Shown: in pieces, positions 1 to 12,372 of the stretch
How the letters are laid out: each line of letters opens with the position of its first letter
How positions within the stretch are numbered: the first letter of the stretch is position 1
Made by a program: the position numbers and the translations under genes
Source of the DNA: Planctomycetes bacterium RIFCSPLOWO2_12_38_17
GTDB lineage: Bacteria > Planctomycetota > Brocadiia > Brocadiales > Brocadiaceae
DNA: 12,372 nt
Assembly (NCBI GenBank): GCA_001830285.1
Contig: MHYY01000153.1
Span: 1 to 12,372 of the forward strand
Reading direction: 5' to 3'
The notes under the pieces: model-generated
The model's database searches: none
The model's input: only the letters and a program-made list of their open reading frames with translations
What the model was told of the DNA's origin: nothing

Positions 1-601
1 ACATACCACAAGCCTTATCCGTATTTTTATAACATGACCAACTTATATGCAATGGTGCATCCAGAGAGACACCTATTTTTATAATTTCTGATTTCTTCTT
101 ATTTATAAGTGGAGTTTCCACTTCAATACAAGTTGTTGGTTTTGTTCCTAATTTTATTAATTTATTGAAGACGTCATAATAGGCTTGTTTACAATCAGGA
201 TAACCAGGACTGTCTTGTTCTACAGCACCAATAAATATCTTCTTTGCCCCTATTACCTCTCCCCACGAGACGGCAATTGTTAAGAAAAGTGTGTTCCTGA
301 ATGGGACATAAGATGTAGGAATTTCTTTGCTATCAGGATTTGCAACCTGGACATCAATATTTGAGTCCGTCAGGCTTGATCCTCCAACCTTACAAAGGTA
401 GTCAATATTTGCTGTAAGAATTCTGTTCCCTGGAATATTGTAAAAAGAGGCAATATCGTAAAATGCCTTAAGCTCCCTCGATTCTGTACGCTGACCGTAA
501 TTAACATGCAATAAAGCAAGTTGATATTGTTTGCTTGCTATCGCCGTTGCTACACAGCTATCTATACCGCCGCTTAACAGCACAATAGCAATATCTTTCA
601 T
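1..601 (-). CDS. queC: 7-cyano-7-deazaguanine synthase QueC. It is partial: the C-terminal end runs off the window at position 1.
   Basis: I translated the minus strand by hand from the ATG at 601-599. This gives MKDIAIVLLSGGIDSCVATAIASKQYQLALLHVNYGQRTE..., which contains the PP-loop SGGxDS motif. Further in come ...FIGAVEQDSPGYPDCKQA... and, at the window edge, ...DKACGM, the start of the C-terminal Cys zinc cluster. The frame stays open for all 200 codons. The gene is missing from the ORF track because it has no stop codon in the window. It begins 4 nt downstream of the queE stop, which suggests one operon. Confidence 0.9.
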   Translation of the reverse strand, partial: MKDIAIVLLSGGIDSCVATAIASKQYQLALLHVNYGQRTESRELKAFYDIASFYNIPGNRILTANIDYLCKVGGSSLTDSNIDVQVANPDSKEIPTSYVPFRNTLFLTIAVSWGEVIGAKKIFIGAVEQDSPGYPDCKQAYYDVFNKLIKLGTKPTTCIEVETPLINKKKSEIIKIGVSLDAPLHISWSCYKNTDKACGM

Positions 602-605
602 TTTG

Positions 606-1241
606 TTATACACCCCTAGTATCTGGTTCCCAGATATATTTATGTAGCTGAAGTTGGAATCTTACATTAAGATCGTCTTCCAGAATCCATTTAACCACAT
701 TCTTTGGATAGGTTGTACCAAATACAGTTCCTATCAAGACGTTTGTAATTTCAGATAAATTATATTTCTTTATTATATCTTTTGCCCAGTCATAATCGTT
801 TCTTGAATTTAATACAAATTTTACTTCATCAATTTTTGAAAGGTACTCAATATTCTTCCAGTTCATGAGGTGTGTCATGTAACTGTCTGGGCATTTTATA
901 TCCATTATTTTAATAGCTTCTTTTGAAATTATGCTGATATCGCAACTCCCATTTGTCTCAACCATAACTGTATGTTTTTTATTTATAAGTTCAGTAATTA
1001 AATAGGGCGTTTCAATGTTAAATAAAGGCTCACCGCCAGTTACACAAACTAATTTTGACCTTAGCGTATCAACGCTTTCAATAATTGAATTAATTGACAT
1101 TTCTTTCCCATCTTCAAAGGCATAAGTAGTATCACAGTAACTACAGCGCAAGTTACAGCCAGTTATACGAATAAAAATGCATGGTAAGCCCGCATATGAA
1201 GTTTCACCCTGAATACTCTTAAAGATTTCATTAATTTTCAT
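606..1241 (-). CDS. queE: 7-carboxy-7-deazaguanine synthase QueE (radical SAM)
   Basis: The 211-aa ORF has the N-terminus MKINEIFKSIQGETSYAGLPCIFIRITGCNLRCSYCDT. This is the QueE-type IFxSIQGE signature followed by the CxxxCxxC radical SAM cluster motif. Its size and its position next to queC both fit. Confidence 0.93.
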   Translation of the reverse strand: MKINEIFKSIQGETSYAGLPCIFIRITGCNLRCSYCDTTYAFEDGKEMSINSIIESVDTLRSKLVCVTGGEPLFNIETPYLITELINKKHTVMVETNGSCDISIISKEAIKIMDIKCPDSYMTHLMNWKNIEYLSKIDEVKFVLNSRNDYDWAKDIIKKYNLSEITNVLIGTVFGTTYPKNVVKWILEDDLNVRFQLQLHKYIWEPDTRGV

Positions 1242-1467
1242 GAGATGTATAAAATACTTAATTAATTTTAAATCGTAAATATTAATATTTCAATTTACTG
1301 TTTTATTATACTATAAATAAAATTTATTTAATCAATTATTTCATAACATTTATACTTAAATTAAGTTGAAATACAATTTCAAATAGCTTATATTCATTCC
1401 CGAATGAAATGTTACAAAATAATTATTTATATAAATTTATTGTTCATATTTTTAAGGAGGATAAATT

Positions 1468-2070
1468 ATGTCAACAATTATAAAAGATGATATTTTGCAA
1501 AAAAAGAGCAAGGAAACAGGTGGCAAAGAAAAAGTTAATAAAATAATGGATACAATTGTTGAATCATCATTGCATCCGACTATTGTTAAACCTGAAAAAC
1601 AAGCACCATCTGGACCAGCCAAACCCTCAAAAATAATTGCTAAACAAAATATTTTTAGCGGTGTAGTATTAATAGAGGGAGAAAATGCTGAAGACCTTAA
1701 TGATATAAAAGGAAGGCTTATAAATGAGCTAAAACCTTCGAATGAGATAGAGTCAATCATAGTAGACCGTATTATTTCTAATATATGGAGATTAAAGAGA
1801 TGTCTGAATATTGAGAGTCAGATTCTTGAGTATGAAACATCTTGTATTCAGGAATACAAACAAGGACTCTTTAGAGTCAAAAAAAGGACAGAAAAGGAAT
1901 TGAATCAATTAAAAGCCTTAAAGATTGCCGAAAACAGAAACAAGATTAGGGAATTAATAAATTATGAAACAATATTGGAAGAGCAAACATTTAAGGCTTT
2001 AAATGAGTTAAACAAAGTCAGGAGTCAAGATTCGAAACAAGAAAATAAGGCAAAAAAAACGAAGAAATAA
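1468..2070 (+). CDS. Hypothetical protein. It is Lys/Glu-rich and predicted to be helical or coiled-coil in its C-terminal half. Function unknown.
   Basis: This is a 200-codon open frame in DNA where stop codons are frequent. A strong Shine-Dalgarno sequence, AAGGAGG (1454-1460), lies 7 nt upstream of the ATG at 1468. The protein has a Pro/Lys-rich N-terminal segment, a central ...ENAEDLNDIKGRLINELKPSNEIESIIVDRIISNIWRLKR... block and a Lys-rich tail. I recognise no catalytic motif. Confidence 0.7.
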   Translation: MSTIIKDDILQKKSKETGGKEKVNKIMDTIVESSLHPTIVKPEKQAPSGPAKPSKIIAKQNIFSGVVLIEGENAEDLNDIKGRLINELKPSNEIESIIVDRIISNIWRLKRCLNIESQILEYETSCIQEYKQGLFRVKKRTEKELNQLKALKIAENRNKIRELINYETILEEQTFKALNELNKVRSQDSKQENKAKKTKK

Positions 2071-2091
2071 TCTTTATAATAAAGTAAATTT

Positions 2092-2122
2092 AATAAATAA
2101 CTTTGGATAAAAGTTGTTTATT
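2092..2122 (+). terminator. Possible weak, AT-rich stem-loop downstream of the hypothetical gene
   Basis: AATAAATAACTTT (2092-2104), a GGATA loop, then AAAGTTGTTTATT (2110-2122). This forms a 13-bp stem with one G.U pair. The stem is almost all A/T and no clear U-tract follows, so it is only a weak terminator candidate. Confidence 0.3.
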
Positions 2123-2274
2123 GCAACATAATATATATTATCGGACGTTATAAATTTTGTATGCAATCTTATCGTATTTTAGTAAATACATCCTATTCTC
2201 CCCTTTTATTTGTTTGTTGATTTATTTATAGATAATTTTTCTTGAAAATACGTAATTTTGAATAAAAATTGTTA

Positions 2275-2303
2275 TTGACAATATAAAATATGTCTGCTAA
2301 TAT
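2275..2303 (+). promoter_or_regulatory. Sigma70-type promoter candidate for the ACP/lipid operon
   Basis: TTGACA (2275-2280), a 17-nt spacer, then TAATAT (2298-2303). A TG at 2295-2296 sits one base before the -10 hexamer, giving an extended -10 of TGcTAATAT. The upstream flank is A/T-rich and UP-element-like. The site lies about 78 nt upstream of the ACP start. The AT-rich background raises the chance of a false positive. Confidence 0.5.
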
Positions 2304-2380
2304 CTTCAACTTATGATATAAATGAGCTAATTTAAGTATTCATTTTTCAAATTTTGCAAGTTATAAAAAGGAGGCAAATT

Positions 2381-2650
2381 TTGAACGCAGGAGATGTTGA
2401 AAAAGGTGTCACGGCAATTGTTGCCGAAGTAACTGAGTTAGATGAAAAAGAAATCTGGGAAAAGCGGGATGCAAATTTCTTTAAAGACCTTGAGATAGAT
2501 TCACTTTTAGCACTTGAGATACTTGCACTTATTGAAAAGAAATTTAAAATACAAATCCCTGAAGAAAAACTTGTTGATATTACATCTTTAAGCGCTACAA
2601 TTGGTTTGACAAAGACTGTGTTAGCCGAGAGTGGCAAACTCACTTCCTAA
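2381..2650 (+). CDS. Acyl carrier protein, a dedicated cluster-specific ACP
   Basis: The phosphopantetheine attachment motif DLEIDSLLALE is present, with the Ser codon at 2501-2503, and the helical ACP pattern ...ILALIEKKFKIQIPEEKL... follows. The ORF track starts at a TTG at 2354. I prefer the in-frame TTG at 2381 because AAAGGAGG (2367-2374) sits 6 nt upstream of it. This gives an 89-aa protein of typical ACP size. Confidence 0.88.
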   Translation: MNAGDVEKGVTAIVAEVTELDEKEIWEKRDANFFKDLEIDSLLALEILALIEKKFKIQIPEEKLVDITSLSATIGLTKTVLAESGKLTS

Positions 2651-2680
2651 TTTTATTGATAGTTAATTTAGCATGTCATA

Positions 2681-2747
2681 AGTTTTTACCCCCATTTATA
2701 TCCTTCTATATTATTATGATGGAGATAAAGGGTGGTAAAACTTTTTT
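2681..2747 (+). terminator. Imperfect long hairpin plus T-tract between the ACP gene and fabZ. It may be a partial terminator or attenuator.
   Basis: AGTTTTTACCCCC (2681-2693) can pair, with bulges, with GGGTGGTAAAACT (2730-2742). TTTTTT (2742-2747) follows directly. The intervening segment can extend the stem (TATCCT with GGAGATA, one bulge). The structure sits inside the 151-nt ACP-fabZ spacer. Confidence 0.35.
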
Positions 2748-2801
2748 ATAGAAAAAGAAAATTAAATATTTAGTTAATTATAAATAGAGGTAAATATATC
2801 T

Positions 2802-3251
2802 ATGATACTATTTGAGGAAATTCGGAACCTACTACCTCAAAAATATCCTTTTTTGTTCATTGATAGGGTTGTTGAGTTTGAAGAAGGAAAGAAAATTGTT
2901 TGTGTGAAGAATGTCTCTGGAAACGAACCTGTTTTTGTTGGCCACTTTCCTGATTTTGCAATCATGCCGGGTGTTTTAATAATAGAAGCAATGGCACAGG
3001 CATCAATAATATTATTTAAAAAGAGTCTGGCTATTAAACATGGTGAGAACACAGTTTTTTTGCTTGCTTCTGTTAGTAATGCAAGATTCACGAAACCAGT
3101 TTTCCCAGGCGACCAGCTTTTAATTGAAATTATTGTTGAAAAGATTGTTTCAAAGGGAGCTATAGTTCACGCAACAGTAAATGTTGGCGAAAAAACAGTT
3201 GCAAAAGCTAATTTAACTTTCGGTATTGCTGAAAAAGGCACATTAATATAG
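2802..3251 (+). CDS. fabZ: 3-hydroxyacyl-ACP dehydratase, FabZ family (hot-dog fold)
   Basis: The 149-aa protein begins [57 protein letters not shown]. This aligns almost residue for residue with the E. coli FabZ core. The catalytic His (GHFP, codon 2943-2945) and Glu (IEAMAQ) are both present. GAGG (2787-2790) lies upstream of the ATG. Confidence 0.95.
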
Positions 3252-3255
3252 TTCT

Positions 3256-4473
3256 ATGAATAGACGCGTAGTAATAACAGGCGTGGGGATGATAACCCCT
3301 ATAGGTTCTGGTAAAGATGTCTTCTGGAAATCGCTTATCGCCGGAGAATCCGGGGTTGATAATGTAACATGTATTGATACATCTGAATATAAAGTTCATA
3401 AGGGATGTGAGGTTAAGAACTTTAATTATTCAAATTATATCAAGAACGGCGTACTTAAGAAGATCGGTAAAGGCTCACAGTTTGCTATAGCAGCTACAAA
3501 GCTTGCTCTGGATGATGCGAGAATTGATTTTAATAATATAGATTTGGAGAGAATTGGGGTTTCTATGGGAACAACTGCAGGTGAAATACAAATTCTTGAA
3601 AAAGTCAACTATATACGCCATAAAGAAGGAGAAGATAATGTAGACCCTGATTTATTTTTAATGCATCCGTGCAACAACATCCCTGCTAACATTGCAATCG
3701 AATTTGGTTTTAAAGGACCAAATACCATTATTCCTACTGCATGTGCAGCTGGTAATTATGCGATTGGATATGCTTATGACCTTATCAAATTTGGCAGAGT
3801 GGACTTGATGGTTGTTGGCGGCTCAGATCCGTTTTCTAAAGTTGCATACACAGGTTTTGCAAGGTTAGGAGCAATCGCACCTGAAATATGCCAGCCGTTC
3901 GATAAGAATAGAAAAGGAATGATGGTTGGTGAAGGCGCTGGGATGCTTCTTCTTGAGTCACTTGAACATGCACAAAAAAGAGGTGCTAACATTTATGCAG
4001 AAATTATAGGTTATGGTCTTAGTTGTGATGCATATCATATTACCATTCCGCATCCGGACGGCGAGGGTGTGGTTTCCGCTATGAAGAAAGCACTTCAAAG
4101 TGCAAACTTAAAACCTGAAGATGCTCAATATATTAGCGCTCATGGCACAGGAACTCCTTCAAATGATAAGGCAGAAACAATTTCAATAAAAAAAGTATTT
4201 GGTGACAAACCAAAGAATCTTGCCATTAGTTCAATAAAATCTATGATTGGGCATACTATGGGTGCGGCAAGCGCAATTGAGGCTATTACATGCGCGTTAG
4301 CTGTACAGAATGATATAATACCACCAACAATTAATTATGAGACGCCCGATCCCGAGTGCGACTTGGATTATGTTCCTAATGTAATGCGGAAGCAGAAGGT
4401 AAATATCGCACTAAACAATGCCCATGCATTTGGTGGGAACAATAGTTGTTTGGTCGTGAAAAAATTTACATAA
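3256..4473 (+). CDS. fabF: Beta-ketoacyl-ACP synthase, FabF/KAS II-like, catalytically intact (KS-alpha-like subunit)
   Basis: The 405-aa protein has a complete Cys-His-His triad. The Cys lies in [12 protein letters not shown] (codon 3742-3744), the first His in [14 protein letters not shown] and the second His in [15 protein letters not shown]. The C-terminus [14 protein letters not shown] is typical. The gene starts 4 nt after the fabZ stop. Confidence 0.93.
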
Positions 4474-4503
4474 TAAGAAATTTACTGCTTGTTAGAGTAT
4501 ATT

Positions 4504-5745
4504 ATGGAAAAAACAAGAATTGTTGTTACAGGTATTTCAGTCATCTCCCCTGTTGGGACAGGGAAAGATGAATTTTGGAAAAACTTGACAAATGGTGTAT
4601 CAGGTATAAAGCCTGTTACTCTGTTTGATGTGAGTAAGTTTAACAGTAAACAAGCCGGTGAGATAACTGATTTTGATGCAAAAGTGTATTTAGGACCAAA
4701 GGGCATTCGCCACATTGACAGGACTTCCCTGCTTGTATCTTCAGGGACTGTGCTTGCTTTCAGAGACGCCAACATTGAAAGCAATACTTATAGCGAAGAC
4801 GAATTAGGAATTGTTGTTGGCTCAACTTATGGGAGTATCGATAGTATTAGTTCGTTTGATTTTCAGTCTTTGCGTGAAGGTCCCAATTATGTTAATCCAA
4901 TGGATTTCCCCAATACAGTGTTGAATGCGCCTGCTAGCCGTGCCTCCATTTTCTGTAAAGCCAAAGGTCTTAACACTACGATTTCAAATGGTGTAACAAG
5001 CAGTATTGACGCTATTATTTATGCATCCGATTTTTTACGTATGGGTCGAGCAAGGGCAGTAGTCGCTGGTGGAGTACATGGATTAACCCATGATATATTC
5101 TGGGGTGCGCATAATTCAAAAATTTTAGCAGGAAGCAGGAATGGAACGCTGGAAATTAGCTCGCCTTTTGATAAAAGAAGAAACGGAATGATTATCGGTG
5201 AGGCTTCAGCACTTGTTTTCCTTGAGACACTGGAAGATGCACTTAAGAGAAATGCTCATATATATACAGAGATTAAAGGTTACGGAACTGCATTTGATCC
5301 AAAGATGTCTACAACAAAAAATTATCAGATTGAAGGCAACAAGCGTGCTATTATAGATGCAATAAAAAATGCCAATTTAACAGTACACGATATTTCCTGC
5401 ATTTATGCAAATGCATATTCAGGCGTCTATGGCGATATTATGGAAACGCTTGCTATTAAAGATGCATTTGGTATGAAATCAAAACTAATACCTGTAACAG
5501 CTATCAAGTCAATGACTGGGGAGTGTTTTGATGCATCTGGTGCTTTACAAACAATAGCCGCCATCATGTCAATTAGAACAAATACTATTCCACCCACAAT
5601 TAACTATAAGGAACCTGACCCCGAGTGTGATTTAGATTATGTACCTAATAATAGCAGGGTTGTTCCTGTTAAAAACGTGCTCATAAATTCATTTTCACGC
5701 CTTGGCAACAGTTCTGCCTTAATAATTTCAAAATACAAACAATAG
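4504..5745 (+). CDS. Ketosynthase paralogue lacking the catalytic triad. It is chain-length-factor / KS-beta-like.
   Basis: The protein has the thiolase/KS fold throughout: VVTGISVISPVGTGKDEFW at the N-terminus and INSFSRLGNSSALII at the C-terminus. The active-site Cys position reads TTISNGVTSSIDA (Val codon 4993-4995). His1 reads ANAYSGVYGD (Tyr) and His2 reads KSMTGECFDASGA (Glu). The ORF track starts at a TTG at 4489. I prefer the ATG at 4504 (MEKTRIVVTG), which matches the KS N-terminus, although neither start has a clear RBS. Confidence 0.85.
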   Translation: MEKTRIVVTGISVISPVGTGKDEFWKNLTNGVSGIKPVTLFDVSKFNSKQAGEITDFDAKVYLGPKGIRHIDRTSLLVSSGTVLAFRDANIESNTYSEDELGIVVGSTYGSIDSISSFDFQSLREGPNYVNPMDFPNTVLNAPASRASIFCKAKGLNTTISNGVTSSIDAIIYASDFLRMGRARAVVAGGVHGLTHDIFWGAHNSKILAGSRNGTLEISSPFDKRRNGMIIGEASALVFLETLEDALKRNAHIYTEIKGYGTAFDPKMSTTKNYQIEGNKRAIIDAIKNANLTVHDISCIYANAYSGVYGDIMETLAIKDAFGMKSKLIPVTAIKSMTGECFDASGALQTIAAIMSIRTNTIPPTINYKEPDPECDLDYVPNNSRVVPVKNVLINSFSRLGNSSALIISKYKQ

Positions 5746-5748
5746 TAC

Positions 5749-7203
5749 ATGTTATCATCAGAAGTAGGCATACAATCCACAAAGAGAAATAAAATATACT
5801 CACATTACGACGTTATTATAATTGGCGCAGGTATAGCAGGTCTTGTTTGTGGTGCATTTCTCGCCAGAAGTGGAAAGAAAGTACTCGTAGTTGAACAACA
5901 TTTTATTCCAGGTGGTTACTGCACATCTTTTAAAAGGAAGGGATTTAACTTTGATGCGGCAGTTCATCATATAGGAGGTTGCGGCAAGTGGAGCATTGTT
6001 GGTCGTTGTTTTAAAACACTCGGAATTGAGATGGATTTTTATCACCTCGATCCAATGGATAATTTAATCTTTCCAAGCTTCAATATAGAAATCCCCGCTG
6101 ATTTAGAGAAATACATATCACAGTTACAAAATCGCTATCCTTCTGAAAAAGAAAGTCTTAAGAATTTTTTTCAGGATTACGTGAAGTTATATCGGGCTAC
6201 GTTCAACATTGAAAAGAGTCAAATCATTGATAAATACAAAGACCAGACATACGCTGAGATGTTAAATAGTTTTTTTGGGAATGAAGAACTAAAGATGGTG
6301 CTTTCTGGTCAGTGGGGTTATATAGGTCTCCCCCCTACTCAAGCGTCTGCCGTCGGTATGTGTCAAATGATGATTAATTATTTAAAGGACGGTGCATTTT
6401 TTCCGGCTGGTGGCACTCAAGAGTTTACGAATGCAATTTTTAAGAAATTTATTGATTTCGGTGGACATGTCATGTTATCATCCGAAGCAAAAGAAATTCT
6501 TTTAGATAATAAAAGTGTAAAAGGTGTTAAATTACACGACGGCAAAGAGATACCTGCTAGCACAGTTGTTTCAAATATAGATGCATATCAAACTTTTTTT
6601 TGCTTACTTGATGGTAATATAGATGCAACCTTCCTTGAAAAAATTGGAAAAATGAAGGAAAGTTGTTCTTTTTCCCTTCTGTATCTTGGTTTAGGAGAAG
6701 AACCGGATTTAAGTAAATTAATTAGGGGTTTTTATCATACATCTATAGATACAGATGATATGGATAAAGAGTGGATGTATATTTCCGTCCCAACAAAGAT
6801 TTATCCAGGGTTGGCTCCAAAAAATAAACAAATAATATCAGTAGTTGTTTATTTTAAAGATGAATTGTATAATAATATTAGCAATTGGAACTCTTTTAAA
6901 GAAGAAATGACGACGAGAACTATTAGTCGTCTCGAATCATATGTTCCAAATATAAAAAATTATATCGAGGTTAAAGAAGCTGCTACGCCAAAAACTCTTG
7001 AGCGATATACTTTAAACAAGAATGGTGCCGCATATGGTTGGGCAGTTAGTGTTAATCAAATATGGGAAAACAGGTTACCCCAGAAAACGCCAATTAATAA
7101 TTTATATTTAACAGGCCACTGGACAAGACCCGGTCCTGGAATTTGTGCCGTTGTCTCTTCTGGCTGGGGTGTCTCAAATTTAATAATGGAGAATTGGAGG
7201 TAA
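5749..7203 (+). CDS. FAD-dependent oxidoreductase, phytoene desaturase (CrtI/CrtISO/RetSat-like) family
   Basis: The 484-aa protein has an N-terminal dinucleotide-binding fold, YDVIIIGAGIAGLVCGAFLARSGKKVLVVEQHFIPGGYCTSF, with GxGxxG at 5824-5841. The C-terminal segment NLYLTGHWTRPGPGICAVVSSG is the type of C-terminal FAD motif found in the CrtI family. The gene starts 3 nt after the preceding stop. I cannot tell from the sequence whether it acts as a desaturase, isomerase or saturase. Confidence 0.82.
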   Translation: MLSSEVGIQSTKRNKIYSHYDVIIIGAGIAGLVCGAFLARSGKKVLVVEQHFIPGGYCTSFKRKGFNFDAAVHHIGGCGKWSIVGRCFKTLGIEMDFYHLDPMDNLIFPSFNIEIPADLEKYISQLQNRYPSEKESLKNFFQDYVKLYRATFNIEKSQIIDKYKDQTYAEMLNSFFGNEELKMVLSGQWGYIGLPPTQASAVGMCQMMINYLKDGAFFPAGGTQEFTNAIFKKFIDFGGHVMLSSEAKEILLDNKSVKGVKLHDGKEIPASTVVSNIDAYQTFFCLLDGNIDATFLEKIGKMKESCSFSLLYLGLGEEPDLSKLIRGFYHTSIDTDDMDKEWMYISVPTKIYPGLAPKNKQIISVVVYFKDELYNNISNWNSFKEEMTTRTISRLESYVPNIKNYIEVKEAATPKTLERYTLNKNGAAYGWAVSVNQIWENRLPQKTPINNLYLTGHWTRPGPGICAVVSSGWGVSNLIMENWR

Positions 7204-7212
7204 ATAATAATT

Positions 7213-8673
7213 ATGAAAAGAAAAATGATGTTAATTAACCCGCACAACCCTGGTAGATGTGGGGAAGAGAGTATTACAGTAATTGTACAGATGCCTCTGA
7301 ATCTTGCTTATATTGCCGCCCTTACACCTGGTGATTGGGAATTTGATGTCATTGATGAAAACATTGATCTCGCAATGGATAATAATGGTGAAATTACCTT
7401 TGCCCCTGTTGATCTAGTATGTATTACTGCGGTTACCTATCAATCTCCTAGGGCATATAAAATTGCCACTGCATGCAGAAAGAGGGGTATGCCTGTAATT
7501 ATGGGTGGTATACATACCTCTGTAATGACAGAGGAGGCTGTAAATTATGCCGATGCAGTTTTTGTAGGCGAGGCAGAGGATGTATGGCCGCAAGTAATTA
7601 GGGACTTTGAAGCAGGTAAACTGAAAAAGGTTTATAATGGTGGTTTACCCCCCCTATCCTTGATGAAAAAAGTATATCCTAATCGTGAGATCATGAAAAG
7701 GAAATACAATTATAAATTCTCGTCCATCGTAACAACTAAAGGATGTCCAAATTACTGTGACTTCTGCAGCGTTCCAACATTCCAGGGTAGAAAATTCAGG
7801 GAGAGACCATATGAAGATGTGCTTGATGAAATGGCCGCGACGGATTATAAGGGACTGATGCTTGCAGAGGATAATTTCTACGGACACGGAAAAAAGTCAA
7901 ACGAAAGGGCAAGAAATCTTTTTAAAGGGATGGTGGAAAAGGGTATTAAAAAAGATTGGCTGGGATTTACAGCCCTGAACATATCTCAGGATAAAGAAAC
8001 TTTGGATTACATGGCTAAAAGTGGTTGTTTTGGAATGCTTATCGGTATTGAATCAACCAATGAAGCTGTTTTACAGAAGATGAATAAACGTGTAAACCTG
8101 AAATTGGGTACAGATAGTTATTTTGACTGCATCCAAAAGATTCACGACGCAGGATTAGTTGTTTGGGGCTCAGTCGTATTTGGCGCCGATGGTGATGATA
8201 AAGATTCCTTTAAGAGGATGACAGACTTTATACTTGAAAATAATATTGATATTTTGACATTTGGAATAAATTGCCCCTTTCCCAAGACACAATTATATGC
8301 AAGATTGGATTCCGAAAAGAGGATCTTCAGGAAGAATTATCCGGAGGATTGGCAATACTATGATACAGCGCATGTCGTTCACAGATTTGTTGACATGACA
8401 CTCGAAAATTTCATTGATGGTATGCAGTATGTATACGACCATATTTATGCAGGCGATAACTTAAGAACCCGTTTCAGGAACTCAATCAAGACTACAAACA
8501 ACCCAAGAAACTCCATGTTTGCATTCAGGGTAGGCTCTGATTGGAAACAGGTATTTGAGCAGGTATTGCAGAACTTGAAAGAATTATATAATTCTGGTGA
8601 TTATTATGTTGACTGCTATAAGTCAAAAGCTGTAACAGTTGAAAAACCTATCTTGGAAACTGCCACAACATAG
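7213..8673 (+). CDS. Radical SAM enzyme with an N-terminal cobalamin (B12)-binding domain (class B radical SAM)
   Basis: The 486-aa protein has a CxxxCxxC motif in TTKGCPNYCDFCSVP, with Cys codons at 7744-7746, 7756-7758 and 7765-7767. A Rossmann-like B12-binding-type N-terminal domain precedes it (...DLVCITAVTYQSPRAYKIATACRKRGMPVIMGGIHTS...AVFVGEAEDVWPQVI...). TGGAGG (7195-7200) lies upstream of the ATG. The gene starts 9 nt after the preceding stop. Confidence 0.9.
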   Translation: MKRKMMLINPHNPGRCGEESITVIVQMPLNLAYIAALTPGDWEFDVIDENIDLAMDNNGEITFAPVDLVCITAVTYQSPRAYKIATACRKRGMPVIMGGIHTSVMTEEAVNYADAVFVGEAEDVWPQVIRDFEAGKLKKVYNGGLPPLSLMKKVYPNREIMKRKYNYKFSSIVTTKGCPNYCDFCSVPTFQGRKFRERPYEDVLDEMAATDYKGLMLAEDNFYGHGKKSNERARNLFKGMVEKGIKKDWLGFTALNISQDKETLDYMAKSGCFGMLIGIESTNEAVLQKMNKRVNLKLGTDSYFDCIQKIHDAGLVVWGSVVFGADGDDKDSFKRMTDFILENNIDILTFGINCPFPKTQLYARLDSEKRIFRKNYPEDWQYYDTAHVVHRFVDMTLENFIDGMQYVYDHIYAGDNLRTRFRNSIKTTNNPRNSMFAFRVGSDWKQVFEQVLQNLKELYNSGDYYVDCYKSKAVTVEKPILETATT

Positions 8674-8705
8674 TATGTTGATACATAAATAAAGTAATAC
8701 AATAT

Positions 8706-8748
8706 AAAGGCACATCAACAGTTTAATTGATGTACCTTTCTGTATTTT
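8706..8748 (+). terminator. Rho-independent-type terminator ending the lipid operon
   Basis: AAAGGCACATCAA (8706-8718), an 8-nt loop, then TTGATGTACCTTT (8727-8739). This forms a 13-bp stem with one C/A mismatch. A T-rich run, CTGTATTTT, follows. The structure begins 33 nt after the radical SAM gene stop. Confidence 0.6.
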
Positions 8749-8801
8749 GATTAGATTCTCTTATGAGCGATTTCCTCAAGTAGTCAGCAAAAGGACAGGA
8801 C

Positions 8802-8830
8802 TTGTTAACTTAAGTAAAATATCCTAAATT
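8802..8830 (+). promoter_or_regulatory. Candidate sigma70-type promoter for the micro-ORF/lpd unit
   Basis: TTGTTA (8802-8807), a 17-nt spacer, then TAAATT (8825-8830). The site lies just downstream of the operon terminator and 21 nt upstream of the ATG at 8851. The hexamers are weak and the DNA is AT-rich. Confidence 0.3.
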
Positions 8831-8850
8831 AAGGAAAGGGAGGCCAAGTA

Positions 8851-8979
8851 ATGATTGGCAAATTATTATCTTTATCAATGGAAAAATCAATTATTCCTGA
8901 CATCAGTCCAAAGGCAATTTTGATTATTACAATTGCACTTATTTTTGTTATATTGTTCACCTGGAAAAAGGAGGGATAA
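8851..8979 (+). CDS. Putative 42-aa small membrane protein. This micro-ORF is not in the supplied ORF track.
   Basis: The ATG at 8851 follows GGGAGG (8838-8843) after a 7-nt spacer. The translation is MIGKLLSLSMEKSIIPDISPKAILIITIALIFVILFTWKKEG*. It contains one clear hydrophobic helix (AILIITIALIFVILFTW) followed by KK. Its TAA stop (8977-8979) directly abuts the TTG start of lpd at 8980, and the lpd Shine-Dalgarno sequence lies inside its last codons. Confidence 0.4.
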   Translation: MIGKLLSLSMEKSIIPDISPKAILIITIALIFVILFTWKKEG

Positions 8980-10419
8980 TTGCCTGATAGGAACTCAACC
9001 TTTGACCTTGCTATCATTGGTGGAGGTCCAGGTGGTTATGTAGCTGCAATAAAAGCTGCCCAATCAGGATTAAAAACTGCTCTTGTTGAAAAGAATAAAG
9101 TCGGCGGTACATGTTTGCATCAGGGTTGTATCCCAACAAAGGCACTTCTTTACTCTGCCGATCTTTATAAAAAGTTTCAAAGGGCAAATGAATATGGAAT
9201 TGCAACTGATAAATTAAGCTTTGATTATTCACAGTTTCATCGTCGTAAAGAAACCGTTGTTAAGCGCTTATTTCAAGGGGTTCAATTTTTACTAAAAAAG
9301 AACGGTGTCGAGGTTTTCGAAGGAGAAGGGTGTCTTACATCTCCAAATAACATATCTATACGAAAAAGTAAAACAGAAATCGACAAGATAAATGCTAAAT
9401 ATATTATATTTGCAACTGGGTCTATTCCTCTCATACCTATTTCAATTCCTTACGATAAGAAATATATACTTACAAGCGATGATATTTTAGTACTTGAAAA
9501 AATACCGAAGTCCATCATAATTGCAGGCGGTGGTGCCGTAGGGATAGAATTTGCACATCTATTTAATATACTCGGGGCAAAAGTTACAATCATAGAACTT
9601 CTGGACGATATCCTCCCGTCCGAAGATAAAGACATCAGTACCACGTTGAGAAAGATATTTATTAAAAGAGGTATAGATGTCTTCACAGGTACCTCTCTTG
9701 AAAAAGTTGAAATTAATAATTGTGCTAATGTTACAATAAAGAGAAAAATATCCCTACCCCCTATCGGCACCGAGAGTTTTACTTATCAAAATGAGTTTTT
9801 AAAGGTAGATTGCTTGCTCCTCGCATTAGGCAGAACACCCGCATTAAGTAATATTGGCTTAGAAAGTTTATATTTGAATTTTAAAGGAAATAATCTTCAA
9901 ATTAATGAAGTAATGGAAACAAGTCAAAAAGGGCTTTTTGCAATCGGAGACATTACAGGCCCCCCTCTCCTTGCCCATAAAGCCTCAAAACAAGGCTTAA
10001 TTGCTGTAGATTATATTTCAGGAAAGAAACCAATTCCGTTAAATTATCAGAATATCCCTAGGGTAACATACTGTTCTCCACAAGTTGCCAGTATTGGGGT
10101 CACACAGGAAGAGGCAGAAAAGAAAAGATACAAAATAAAAACCGGAAGATTCCCTTTTATAGCTAATAGTAAGGCAATTATAGATGGGGATTATGAAGAT
10201 GGATTTGTGAAAATCATCGCAGATGAAAAACACGGTGAGATTTTAGGACTTCATGCAATAGGACCAAATGTAGGTGAGTTCATATGGGGTATATCTCTTA
10301 CTACTGCACTTGAAGGAACGGCTCATGAACTATCAAATAATATATTTCCCCACCCTACTCTGTCTGAATCTATTTTAGAAGCAGCCCTTGCTGTGGTTGG
10401 TAAACCAATCCATAATTAA
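8980..10419 (+). CDS. lpdA: Dihydrolipoyl (dihydrolipoamide) dehydrogenase, the E3 component
   Basis: The 479-aa protein has the FAD fold FDLAIIGGGPGGYVAAIKAAQSG and the redox-active disulfide GGTCLHQGCIPTKALL. It also has the NAD fold IIAGGGAVGIEFAHLF, the GDITGPPLLAHKA motif and the C-terminal HPTLSE catalytic His-Glu motif. It uses a TTG start at 8980, with AAGGAGGG (8968-8975) just upstream. Confidence 0.93.
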   Translation: MPDRNSTFDLAIIGGGPGGYVAAIKAAQSGLKTALVEKNKVGGTCLHQGCIPTKALLYSADLYKKFQRANEYGIATDKLSFDYSQFHRRKETVVKRLFQGVQFLLKKNGVEVFEGEGCLTSPNNISIRKSKTEIDKINAKYIIFATGSIPLIPISIPYDKKYILTSDDILVLEKIPKSIIIAGGGAVGIEFAHLFNILGAKVTIIELLDDILPSEDKDISTTLRKIFIKRGIDVFTGTSLEKVEINNCANVTIKRKISLPPIGTESFTYQNEFLKVDCLLLALGRTPALSNIGLESLYLNFKGNNLQINEVMETSQKGLFAIGDITGPPLLAHKASKQGLIAVDYISGKKPIPLNYQNIPRVTYCSPQVASIGVTQEEAEKKRYKIKTGRFPFIANSKAIIDGDYEDGFVKIIADEKHGEILGLHAIGPNVGEFIWGISLTTALEGTAHELSNNIFPHPTLSESILEAALAVVGKPIHN

Positions 10420-10492
10420 TCTGTCTAACTATGAACGTTTCTCAGAAATATACAACCCTTATAGAATCAATTAATAAATAATCCAATCAAAA

Positions 10493-12190
10493 ATGAACAA
10501 CAAGGCAAAGATTGCGTATTTTTCAATGGAGATTGGTCTCTCGAACAATATGCCAACTTACAGTGGTGGTTTGGGAGTCCTTGCAGGAGATACTATAAAA
10601 TCAAGCGCTGACCTTAAAATCCCTCTGGTTGCCGTTACATTAATTTCTAAAAAAGGCTTTTTCCGCCAGGATATTGACCCAGAAGGAAGACAGATTGAAT
10701 ATCCCGTGAATTGGGAACCTTCCAAATATTTGATACATTTACCTAAAAAGGTGGATGTGCAAATTGAAGGTCGTAAAGTTTGTATTTATGCGTGGAGTTA
10801 CAAAGTACGAAGTGTTACAGGCGGGGAAGTTGAAATTATATTTTTAGATACAGATAACAAAGAGAATACAACAGAGGATAGAGAAATTACTGCCTACTTA
10901 TATGGCGGTGATGATTGTTATAGACTTAAACAGGAGATTGTGCTTGGTATTGGAGGTGTGCGAATGCTCCATGCACTTGGATTTCATATAAATAAATATC
11001 ATATGAACGAAGGCCACGCCAGTTTCCTTACGCTTGAATTGTTGATAATGAGCAAGAGAGATGTTGAAAGCGTCTGGGACGAAAGGTGGGTATGGGATCT
11101 CGATGCTGTTAAAGATTTATGTGTCTTTACTACTCATACACCGATTGAGACTGGTCATGACAAGTATACTTATGATTTAGTAAAGAAAGTTCTCGGTGAA
11201 ACAGTACCAATTGAGATACTTAAAACACTCGCTGGTGAAAATCAACTTAATATGACATTGCTTGCACTAAATTTGAGTAAATATGTTAATGGTGTAGCAA
11301 AAAAACATGGTGAAGTTTCTAAAAGTTTATTCCCTGGTTACGAGATTAATGCAATTACAAATGGTGTTCATTCTTTCACATGGACATGTGGAAGTTTTGT
11401 GAAATTATACGATAAATATATTCAAGGATGGGCAAATGAACCAGAGTTATTTGTCCGCTCAGAAACCATACCTGATGAAGAATTATGGGAAGCCCATATT
11501 AAAGCCAAGGATGATTTATTATCTTTTGTAAAACAGACTAATGGTATCGAATTAAATAGAGAATCATTAACCATTGGATTTGCAAGGAGATTTACTTCAT
11601 ACAAGAGGGCTGACTTAATTTTTACAAATCTGGAAAGACTTTTAAAAATAGGCGAGAAATGGAGTATACAGATTATTTACGCTGGTAAGGCACATCCAAA
11701 AGATACTCCAGGAAAGGATATAATAAAAAGGATTAATGAAATTGAAAAGACAATCAGGGACAAAATCAGAGTCGTCTTTTTGAAGGATTACAATATTGAT
11801 ATGGCATTAAAACTGATTTCTGGTGTTGACGTTTGGTTAAATACCCCCTTGCGTCCACGAGAGGCATCGGGCACTAGTGGTATGAAAGCTGCCCATAACG
11901 GTGTAATAAATTTCAGCATTTTGGATGGCTGGTGGATCGAAGGACATATTGAAGGCATTACAGGATGGTCTATAGGTCCAAAACCATTTGAAACTTTACT
12001 TACCAACACAAACGATGCAGCCGATGCGGAAGATTTATATAATAAATTAGAAAATACAATTGCGCAGATATATTATAATGATAAAGAACAATGGATAAAA
12101 ATCATGAAGAACTCTATAAGTAAAATTGCTTATTATTTTAACAGTCACCGCATGATGCGCCGGTATGTAACAGAGGCATATCTAAGATAA
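10493..12190 (+). CDS. glgP: Alpha-glucan (glycogen/maltodextrin) phosphorylase, short-form GT35 family
   Basis: The 565-aa protein has the N-terminus IAYFSMEIGL...MPTYSGGLGVLAGDTIKSSADLKIPLVAVTL, followed by HMNEGHASF. The PLP-lysine region PREASGTSGMKAAHNGVINFSILDGWW is also present. All of these are characteristic of the alpha-glucan family phosphorylases. Confidence 0.92.
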   Translation: MNNKAKIAYFSMEIGLSNNMPTYSGGLGVLAGDTIKSSADLKIPLVAVTLISKKGFFRQDIDPEGRQIEYPVNWEPSKYLIHLPKKVDVQIEGRKVCIYAWSYKVRSVTGGEVEIIFLDTDNKENTTEDREITAYLYGGDDCYRLKQEIVLGIGGVRMLHALGFHINKYHMNEGHASFLTLELLIMSKRDVESVWDERWVWDLDAVKDLCVFTTHTPIETGHDKYTYDLVKKVLGETVPIEILKTLAGENQLNMTLLALNLSKYVNGVAKKHGEVSKSLFPGYEINAITNGVHSFTWTCGSFVKLYDKYIQGWANEPELFVRSETIPDEELWEAHIKAKDDLLSFVKQTNGIELNRESLTIGFARRFTSYKRADLIFTNLERLLKIGEKWSIQIIYAGKAHPKDTPGKDIIKRINEIEKTIRDKIRVVFLKDYNIDMALKLISGVDVWLNTPLRPREASGTSGMKAAHNGVINFSILDGWWIEGHIEGITGWSIGPKPFETLLTNTNDAADAEDLYNKLENTIAQIYYNDKEQWIKIMKNSISKIAYYFNSHRMMRRYVTEAYLR

Positions 12191-12192
12191 GC

Positions 12193-12372
12193 ATGCATAA
12201 AATCCTCATAAATGTTAAGGCTTTTATTTTTGACCTTGACGACACACTTTATGATTGTAGTGGTACTCTTGTATTACATGGACGGAAAAAGGTTGCAAGT
12301 AAGATAGCAAATTTAATTAATTGTTCAGAAGAAGATGCATATCTTCTCCAATTTAAAATAGAGGAAGAATAC
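12193..12372 (+). CDS. HAD-superfamily hydrolase. It is partial: only the N-terminal 60 codons are present and the gene runs off the window.
   Basis: The ATG at 12193 lies 2 nt after the glgP stop. The hand translation is MHKILINVKAFIFDLDDTLYDCSGTLVLHGRKKVASKIANLINCSEEDAYLLQFKIEEEY. It contains HAD motif I, DxDxT (FDLDDTLY). The frame is open to the window end. Confidence 0.7.
   Translation, partial: MHKILINVKAFIFDLDDTLYDCSGTLVLHGRKKVASKIANLINCSEEDAYLLQFKIEEEY

Follow-up and report, generated by a model that had tools for sequence, protein, structure and literature searches.

A catalytically dead ketosynthase in the anammox Cluster I of a Brocadiaceae genome as a probable chain-length-factor-like partner of its active neighbour

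What can a ketosynthase (KS) contribute to a pathway when none of its three catalytic residues is left? The question is raised by a 12,372-nucleotide stretch of DNA from the Planctomycetes bacterium RIFCSPLOWO2_12_38_17, a member of the Brocadiaceae (assembly GCA_001830285.1, contig MHYY01000153.1, positions 1 to 12,372; hereafter the window), in which two paralogous KS genes lie side by side on the same strand; the first ends at position 4473 and the second starts at 4504, leaving a gap of 30 bp. An earlier note, made from the sequence alone, proposed that the second gene product is a condensation-dead partner of the first, comparable to the chain-length factor (CLF) that accompanies the active KS of type II polyketide synthases (PKSs). 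Our analysis leads to much the same answer: the downstream protein is very probably a dead, CLF-like partner of the active KS that shapes the acyl tunnel of the latter. The finding is already known, as the substitutions were published in 2009 (Rattray 2009) and a 2026 preprint (10.64898/2026.05.19.726425) described the heterodimer together with its structure and tunnel role. The two genes and the sites on which the argument turns are as follows.

3256–4473, + strand: active ketosynthase, orthologue of amxFabF2 (90% identity to PDB 9s5h chain B; triad present)
4504–5745, + strand: catalytically dead ketosynthase paralogue, orthologue of amxFabFmut by sequence and putative CLF-like partner (82% identity to 9s5h chain C)
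4831–4923, + strand: helix-loop-helix motif, residues 110–140 of the dead subunit, with tunnel-lining Phe135 (4906–4908), Thr138 (4915–4917) and Val139 (4918–4920)
4993–4995, + strand: Val164, codon GTA, at the catalytic Cys position (MAFFT against FabF C163; HMMER against Bacillus subtilis FabF)
5410–5412, + strand: Asn303, codon AAT, at the first catalytic His position (MAFFT and HMMER; agrees with Asn298 of Kuste3606)
5416–5418, + strand: Tyr305, codon TAT, aligned with FabF Thr305 (Thr300 in FabB numbering; compare Tyr300 of Kuste3606)
5521–5523, + strand: Glu340, codon GAG, at the second catalytic His position (MAFFT and HMMER)

The downstream open reading frame (ORF) encodes 413 amino acids from an ATG at 4504, the mechanically called frame starting at a TTG at 4489. 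It carries both ketoacyl-synthase Pfam domains and scores 322.3 bits against the NCBIfam model fabF (TIGR03150), below the cut-off of 493.75; it is not a canonical FabF and reads V/N/E at the triad. The residues were assigned in a MAFFT alignment of both window proteins with Escherichia coli FabF (NC_000913.3) and about 150 KS-fold homologues from related loci. The upstream protein retains the complete triad in this alignment, with C163 (3742–3744) in TACAAG, H296 (4141–4143) in AHGTGT and H333 (4252–4254) in GHTMGA, just as the earlier note had read these motifs in its alignment by hand. None of the three catalytic residues is present in its downstream paralogue (V164/N303/E340), and the total loss of the triad that had been claimed is thus borne out, together with two of the three replacements: the GTA codon of the Val lies exactly where it had been placed, and the second His is indeed a Glu. 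The third replacement has to be corrected. The position of the first His holds Asn303 and not a Tyr; the Tyr that had been assigned to it is Tyr305, two residues away at the Thr305 site, and the two-residue deletion postulated before the GD does not exist, the segments AHGTSTPAGD and ANAYSGVYGD pairing without a gap. HMMER against B. subtilis FabF gives an ungapped register identical to that of MAFFT, and the alignment with a His-to-Tyr change and a deletion was rejected on the concordance of both programs with the published residues of the Kuenenia homologue. For that protein, Kuste3606, Val163, Asn298, Tyr300, Gly302, Lys328, Glu333, Gln342 and Arg392 were tabulated in FabB numbering (Rattray 2009, PMC2649909, Table 2), and the window protein equals it at eight of the eight sites (V164, N303, Y305, G307, K335, E340, Q349 and Arg at the Phe400 position). 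The V-N-E pattern is not a chance feature of one genome, because it is common to 46 aligned sequences (45 database homologues besides the window protein) and occurs in almost all Brocadiaceae loci.

The same correspondence extends over the whole protein. The dead KS aligns with chain C of PDB entries 9S5H and 9S5I at 82% identity over 411 amino acids (E = 8.8e-230) and the active KS with chain B at 90% (E = 3e-250), both identities being counted over the printed alignments. Both entries match the heterodimer of amxFabF2 and amxFabFmut from Brocadia fulgida that is described in the preprint, the text of which does not give the codes. The closest database protein to the dead KS, at 99% identity, is named Candidatus (Ca.) Wujingus californicus, of the family Brocadiaceae, followed by proteins of Brocadia, Jettenia and Kuenenia, the Kuenenia loci (L020–L022) reaching 79–80% identity. 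Full-length similarity, the triad and accessory substitutions, the gene context and the occurrence in Brocadiales, the order of the anammox bacteria, all agree with amxFabFmut, and on these sequence grounds the ORF at 4504–5745 is the orthologue of that protein (Kuste3606).

What is known of the function of such a protein comes from experiments on the orthologues (10.64898/2026.05.19.726425). AmxFabF2 and amxFabFmut co-purify; either subunit alone is inactive and does not react with acyl-ACP crosslinking probes (ACP, acyl carrier protein), while the pair decarboxylates malonyl-ACP to acetyl-ACP and yields acetoacetyl-ACP. The triad resides in amxFabF2 only, which is also the subunit that becomes crosslinked, and the decarboxylating and condensing role is given to it as a working hypothesis. 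Phe135, Thr138 and Val139 of amxFabFmut form part of the lining of the amxFabF2 acyl tunnel; the tunnel within amxFabFmut itself has no access to the amxFabF2 triad. The pair prefers C6–C8 probes, and the substitutions F135G/V139G in amxFabFmut alter which of the C6, C8 and C16 probes it favours. The authors of the preprint accordingly call amxFabFmut the first chain-length-factor-like protein in a fatty-acid-type pathway. These results support both the dimerisation of the dead protein with the upstream KS, which is what 9S5H/9S5I depict, and the structural, tunnel-shaping role that the earlier note had ascribed to it.

The residues concerned are all in place in the window. Phe135, Thr138 and Val139 of the dead KS are identical to those of the B. 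fulgida structure, and at all positions compared the tunnel and metal-site residues of the active KS equal those of the B. fulgida chain. Because of the 82% and 90% identities and the identical interface and tunnel residues, we infer that the window pair behaves like the crystallised orthologues, that is, as a heterodimer whose subunits are inactive alone. A further, evolutionary argument comes from a survey of 65 full-length dead-KS homologues, taken from anammox bacteria as well as from others. The most conserved 20-amino-acid stretch of the family falls on residues 126–150; Phe135 is present in all 65 homologues, and Thr138 and Val139 in 64 each. The Cys-equivalent position, by contrast, is among the most variable of the family (V, F, E, M, Y or I; 2.13 bits). 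Among the partner KSs, the motif equivalent to the tunnel segment varies more than the protein does on average (1.85 versus 1.10 bits). An invariant tunnel motif next to a drifting vestigial Cys position fits selection on the wall of the partner's tunnel and not on the former active site of the protein itself.

The mechanism that we favour would then run as follows. The dead KS would form an obligate heterodimer with the active KS, the amxFabF2 orthologue, and the active subunit would carry out all of the thioester chemistry, namely acyl transfer to Cys163, decarboxylation of malonyl-ACP and Claisen condensation. The dead subunit would be the dimer partner that the active subunit requires, and its helix-loop-helix with Phe135, Thr138 and Val139 would form part of the active subunit's tunnel wall and so bias the length of the chain. 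It would thereby work much like the CLF of a type II PKS, within the putative ladderane cluster's own dedicated ACP/FabZ/KS module, and the physiological product is expected to be a short or medium-length acyl-ACP. The earlier note had also taken the Val as an argument against decarboxylase activity; this is consistent for the dead subunit, whereas it does not carry over to the complex, since the orthologous heterodimer as a whole decarboxylates malonyl-ACP.

Several points weigh against this account. All of the heterodimer and activity experiments were carried out on the Kuenenia and B. fulgida orthologues and not on the window proteins. In the preprint itself (10.64898/2026.05.19.726425), elongation past acetoacetyl-ACP was not detected in vitro, the chain-length evidence stems from a non-physiological crosslinking reaction, and the link between the gene cluster and ladderanes is still correlative only. 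The same work ascribes the specificity of the heterodimer to an electrostatic asymmetry, with a negative motif on the KS and a positive one on the dead KS; charged-residue counts over segments 110–140 and 196–206 of the window proteins give −4/+1 versus −3/0, and this crude count, which is linear and not a surface-potential calculation, does not reproduce the asymmetry, although we base no conclusion on it. Finally, the vestigial pocket of the dead KS is itself conserved: Lys335, Asp311 and Glu314 are invariant among the 65 homologues, and position 340 is always acidic (Glu in 56, Asp in nine). We take such invariance as structural constraint, although it may also reflect a residual function.

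The conserved pocket is also an argument for a different view, in which the dead subunit would itself act in catalysis or ligand binding, either recruiting a moiety that does not come from the type II synthesis of fatty acids (FAS II) or holding a lipid in its own tunnel. A role of this kind was put forward when Kuste3606 was proposed to bring a non-FAS II moiety, for example a preformed ladderane unit, into fatty-acid synthesis (Rattray 2009, PMC2649909), and in the crystal structure the mutated triad is reached by a second tunnel, which is filled by polyethylene glycol. We nevertheless consider it improbable. The Lys/Asp/Glu network is conserved in active KSs too and may be structural, the Cys-equivalent position varies freely (V/I/T/E/F/M/Y/G), and Arg, Tyr or Pro stands in place of the gating Phe400; the isolated orthologue is inert towards substrates and crosslinkers alike, its second tunnel is cut off from the sole triad of the complex, and the proposal of 2009 is explicitly rejected in the preprint (10.64898/2026.05.19.726425).

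A departure from our favoured tunnel-shaping partner in another direction would make the dead subunit a classical type II PKS CLF, or chain initiation factor, that itself decarboxylates malonyl-ACP for priming. Aromatic CLFs carry a Gln at the Cys position, which serves decarboxylative priming, as reported by Bisang et al. in 1999. The adjacency of a KS and a dead-KS gene is as in type II PKS clusters, and the fact that decarboxylation and acetoacetyl-ACP formation require the orthologous heterodimer, neither subunit sufficing, could be read in the same sense. As the earlier note had already stated, the window protein has a Val (Val164) instead of this Gln; no surveyed homologue carries Gln at the Cys position, and both of the His residues needed for decarboxylation are lost. 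Its bit scores favour B. subtilis FabF (258), the orthologue of its own partner (243) and the actinorhodin KS (161) over the actinorhodin CLF (134), and in a neighbour-joining tree of FabF-like sequences, in which no CLFs were included, the dead-KS clade is separate and monophyletic in 39 of 40 bootstraps. Together with the preprint's working hypothesis, which gives decarboxylation and condensation to amxFabF2, these observations leave a classical CLF with only a very small probability. Smaller still is the chance that the ORF is a decaying, functionless fabF duplicate, a pseudogene in the making. The loss of all three catalytic residues and of the gating Phe would suit such a fate; the frame, however, is intact over its full length, orthologues occupy the same position throughout the Brocadiales and are found in other phyla, and an orthologue is known to be expressed and to fold into a defined heterodimer. 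The ratio of nonsynonymous to synonymous substitution rates (dN/dS) lies between 0.03 and 0.14, similar to that of the neighbouring genes: comparison with locus L001, at 96% identity, gives 0.135, and the loci with estimable dS give 0.03–0.04. The dead KS is under strong purifying selection and is not a decaying duplicate, and we regard the pseudogene as effectively ruled out by the dN/dS values and the conserved Brocadiales orthologues.

The substitutions at the triad are not uniform across the order. In a clade of Brocadiales whose dead KS shares about 60% identity with the window protein (L029–L038), the triad positions read E-N-D, in one case with Asn/Glu at the His positions, so that a negatively charged Glu stands where the Brocadiaceae have Val, and the Scalindua-type proteins read V-C-E or T-C-E. 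One protein of 410 amino acids on a 2.5 kb contig (P0054) has an apparent Val-His-His and was considered as an evolutionary intermediate; it resembles the dead KS in the N-terminal half and the active KS in the C-terminal half, and the record is most likely an assembly chimera of the two adjacent paralogues. On two Brocadia metagenome-assembled genome (MAG) contigs (L009, 8001–9707; L010, 9–1716) the dead-KS match extends over some 1.7 kb and not 1.24 kb, and on the former tblastn matches the active KS in two separate pieces, which suggests frameshifts or assembly errors in these records.

The KS pair is embedded in a six-gene cluster, and the remaining genes and ORFs of the window are listed below in positional order.

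off the 5' end, − strand: QueC-like partial ORF
606–1241, − strand: QueE, queuosine precursor gene
1468–2070, + strand: Lys/Glu-rich ORF of 200 amino acids between the QueE and ACP genes
2354–2650, + strand: cluster-specific ACP, orthologue of amxACP (Pfam PP-binding, 1.3e-13)
2802–3251, + strand: FabZ-type 3-hydroxyacyl-ACP dehydratase, orthologue of amxFabZ (Pfam FabA, 2.5e-27)
5749–7203, + strand: CrtI/phytoene-desaturase-family FAD oxidoreductase of Cluster I (Pfam Amino_oxidase, NAD_binding_8)
7213–8673, + strand: B12-binding radical S-adenosylmethionine (SAM) enzyme of Cluster I (Pfam Radical_SAM, B12-binding)
8980–10419: dihydrolipoyl dehydrogenase (Lpd), after the six-gene cluster
10493–12190: alpha-glucan phosphorylase, after Lpd
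12150–12372, + strand: partial ORF off the 3' end, no function assigned

The order ACP, FabZ, KS, dead KS, CrtI-like oxidoreductase and radical SAM enzyme recurs in all Brocadiales loci that are long enough to contain the six genes, the loci compared being from Brocadia, Jettenia, Kuenenia, Loosdrechtia, the Scalinduaceae and the clade with about 60% identity. It is the order of the anammox 'Cluster I' (KustE3603-3608), the chief candidate for ladderane-lipid synthesis (10.64898/2026.05.19.726425). The ACP falls under the NCBIfam cut-offs of the canonical ACP equivalogs and is syntenic at 82–94% identity in the Brocadiaceae loci and at 76–83% in the Scalinduaceae and the 60% clade. FabZ exceeds its cut-off (NF000582, 152.8 bits) and is syntenic across all anammox loci, as is the CrtI-like protein in anammox loci, which remains under the cut-off of crtI_fam with 160.8 bits. 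The top NCBIfam match of the radical SAM enzyme is rSAM_ladder_B12 (TIGR04072; 88 bits, under the cut-off), and the gene is syntenic at 72–97% identity in the Brocadiales loci that match as one stretch. The preprint text places amxFabFmut immediately upstream of amxFabF2; the window and all of the Brocadiales loci examined show the opposite, with the active KS first and the dead KS second. The Lys/Glu-rich ORF has no match in Pfam or NCBIfam; it is kept at the same place in most Brocadiaceae loci (44–89% identity) and is absent from Kuenenia, the Scalinduaceae and the more distant loci. Rfam and tRNA scans found no RNA features in the window, whose G+C content is low at about 0.28–0.40.

The dead-KS clade is not confined to anammox bacteria. 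Members with 37–51% identity occur in Omnitrophota, Thermodesulfovibrio, delta-proteobacterial and Acidobacteria MAGs; example loci, all within L039–L080, are L041 (7944–16201), L043, L052, L053, L059 and L080. In these proteins the Cys is replaced by Phe, Met, Tyr, Ile, Glu or Gly, the first His by Ser, Asn, Cys, Thr or Ala, and the second His by Glu or Asp, and F135/T138/V139 are conserved. Most of the loci have an active KS nearby that is 50–57% identical to that of the window, many also encode FabZ, ACP, FabG and a CrtI-like protein, often with a fatty-acyl reductase, and the dead KS comes first in the pair, unlike in the anammox Cluster I. In a tblastn screen only three of the non-anammox loci had a homologue of the window's B12 radical SAM enzyme (26–39% identity). 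The occurrence outside anammox is itself not new, given the divergent FabF paralogues and syntenic clusters that were described from Desulfotalea and other bacteria (Rattray 2009, PMC2649909); these clusters and the Kuste2805-type paralogues may be of the same kind as the dead-KS/KS pairs discussed here.

It is conceivable, if rather unlikely, that the KS/dead-KS pair is an old portable module, in which the Phe135/Thr138/Val139 gate fixes a length of about C8 and the short acyl-ACP is handed to varied tailoring enzymes; the recipients would be the B12 radical SAM enzyme in anammox bacteria and a fatty-acyl reductase and CrtI-like enzyme elsewhere. Lpd follows the cluster in most Brocadiaceae loci, as it does in the window. 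In four Omnitrophota/Planctomycetales loci (L040, L041, L050 and L052) genes for Mdh, Lpd, a LipB-like protein (LplA-B_cat) and a lipoyl carrier precede the pair (4324–7443 in L041). Because of these Lpd and LipB-like neighbours and the C6–C8 preference of the preprint, the module may feed octanoyl-ACP to lipoylation in some lineages; the adjacency could equally be inherited synteny within the Planctomycetes–Verrucomicrobia–Chlamydiae (PVC) group.

The biosynthesis of ladderane lipids is unsolved, and the KS/dead-KS pair of Cluster I is among the few parts now understood. The window shows an intact and orthodox copy of the module in a Ca. Wujingus-like Brocadiaceae genome and holds no biology beyond the publications of 2009 and 2026. 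Our additions are modest: the family-wide conservation is independent support for the tunnel-shaping role, and the dead-KS clade outside anammox tempers the claim of a module unique to ladderane producers.

How, then, does the pair compare with the systems already described? It is closest to the amxFabFmut–amxFabF2 pair of B. fulgida and Kuenenia (amxFabFhet; KustE3606/KustE3605), with which it shares V/N/E, F135/T138/V139 and the six-gene order; it differs in coming from another genus, judged by the name Ca. Wujingus californicus of its closest protein. Kuste3606 was interpreted as possibly being an enzyme that acts on a new substrate (Rattray 2009), whereas current evidence favours a non-catalytic partner. 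The wider parallel is with the KS-alpha/CLF pairs of type II PKSs, such as those of actinorhodin (1TQY), ishigamide (Iga11-Iga12; 6KXD-F), anthraquinone (AntD-AntE; 6SMO/6SMP) and aryl polyenes (ApeO-ApeC). Shared are an active KS with an adjacent dead paralogue, a tunnel at the interface and an influence of the dead subunit on chain length, and the order of an active KS followed by a dead one in the window resembles that of KS-alpha and CLF in type II PKS clusters. The window protein differs from these CLFs at the Cys position, Val164 standing in place of the Gln; neither PMC8358021 nor PMC12664062 contains an explicit statement on such a Gln in the CLFs of highly reducing type II systems. 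It is moreover full-length, nearest to housekeeping FabF, and part of a cluster that resembles fatty-acid synthesis, with its ACP and FabZ, and not of a polyketide cluster. Because of the Val, the higher FabF and KS scores and its own clade, the dead KS is placed outside the strict type II PKS CLF family; it has probably arisen independently from a FabF-like ancestor, as a tree built without CLFs suggests, and would, in functional terms, make up one half of a KS/CLF-like pair.

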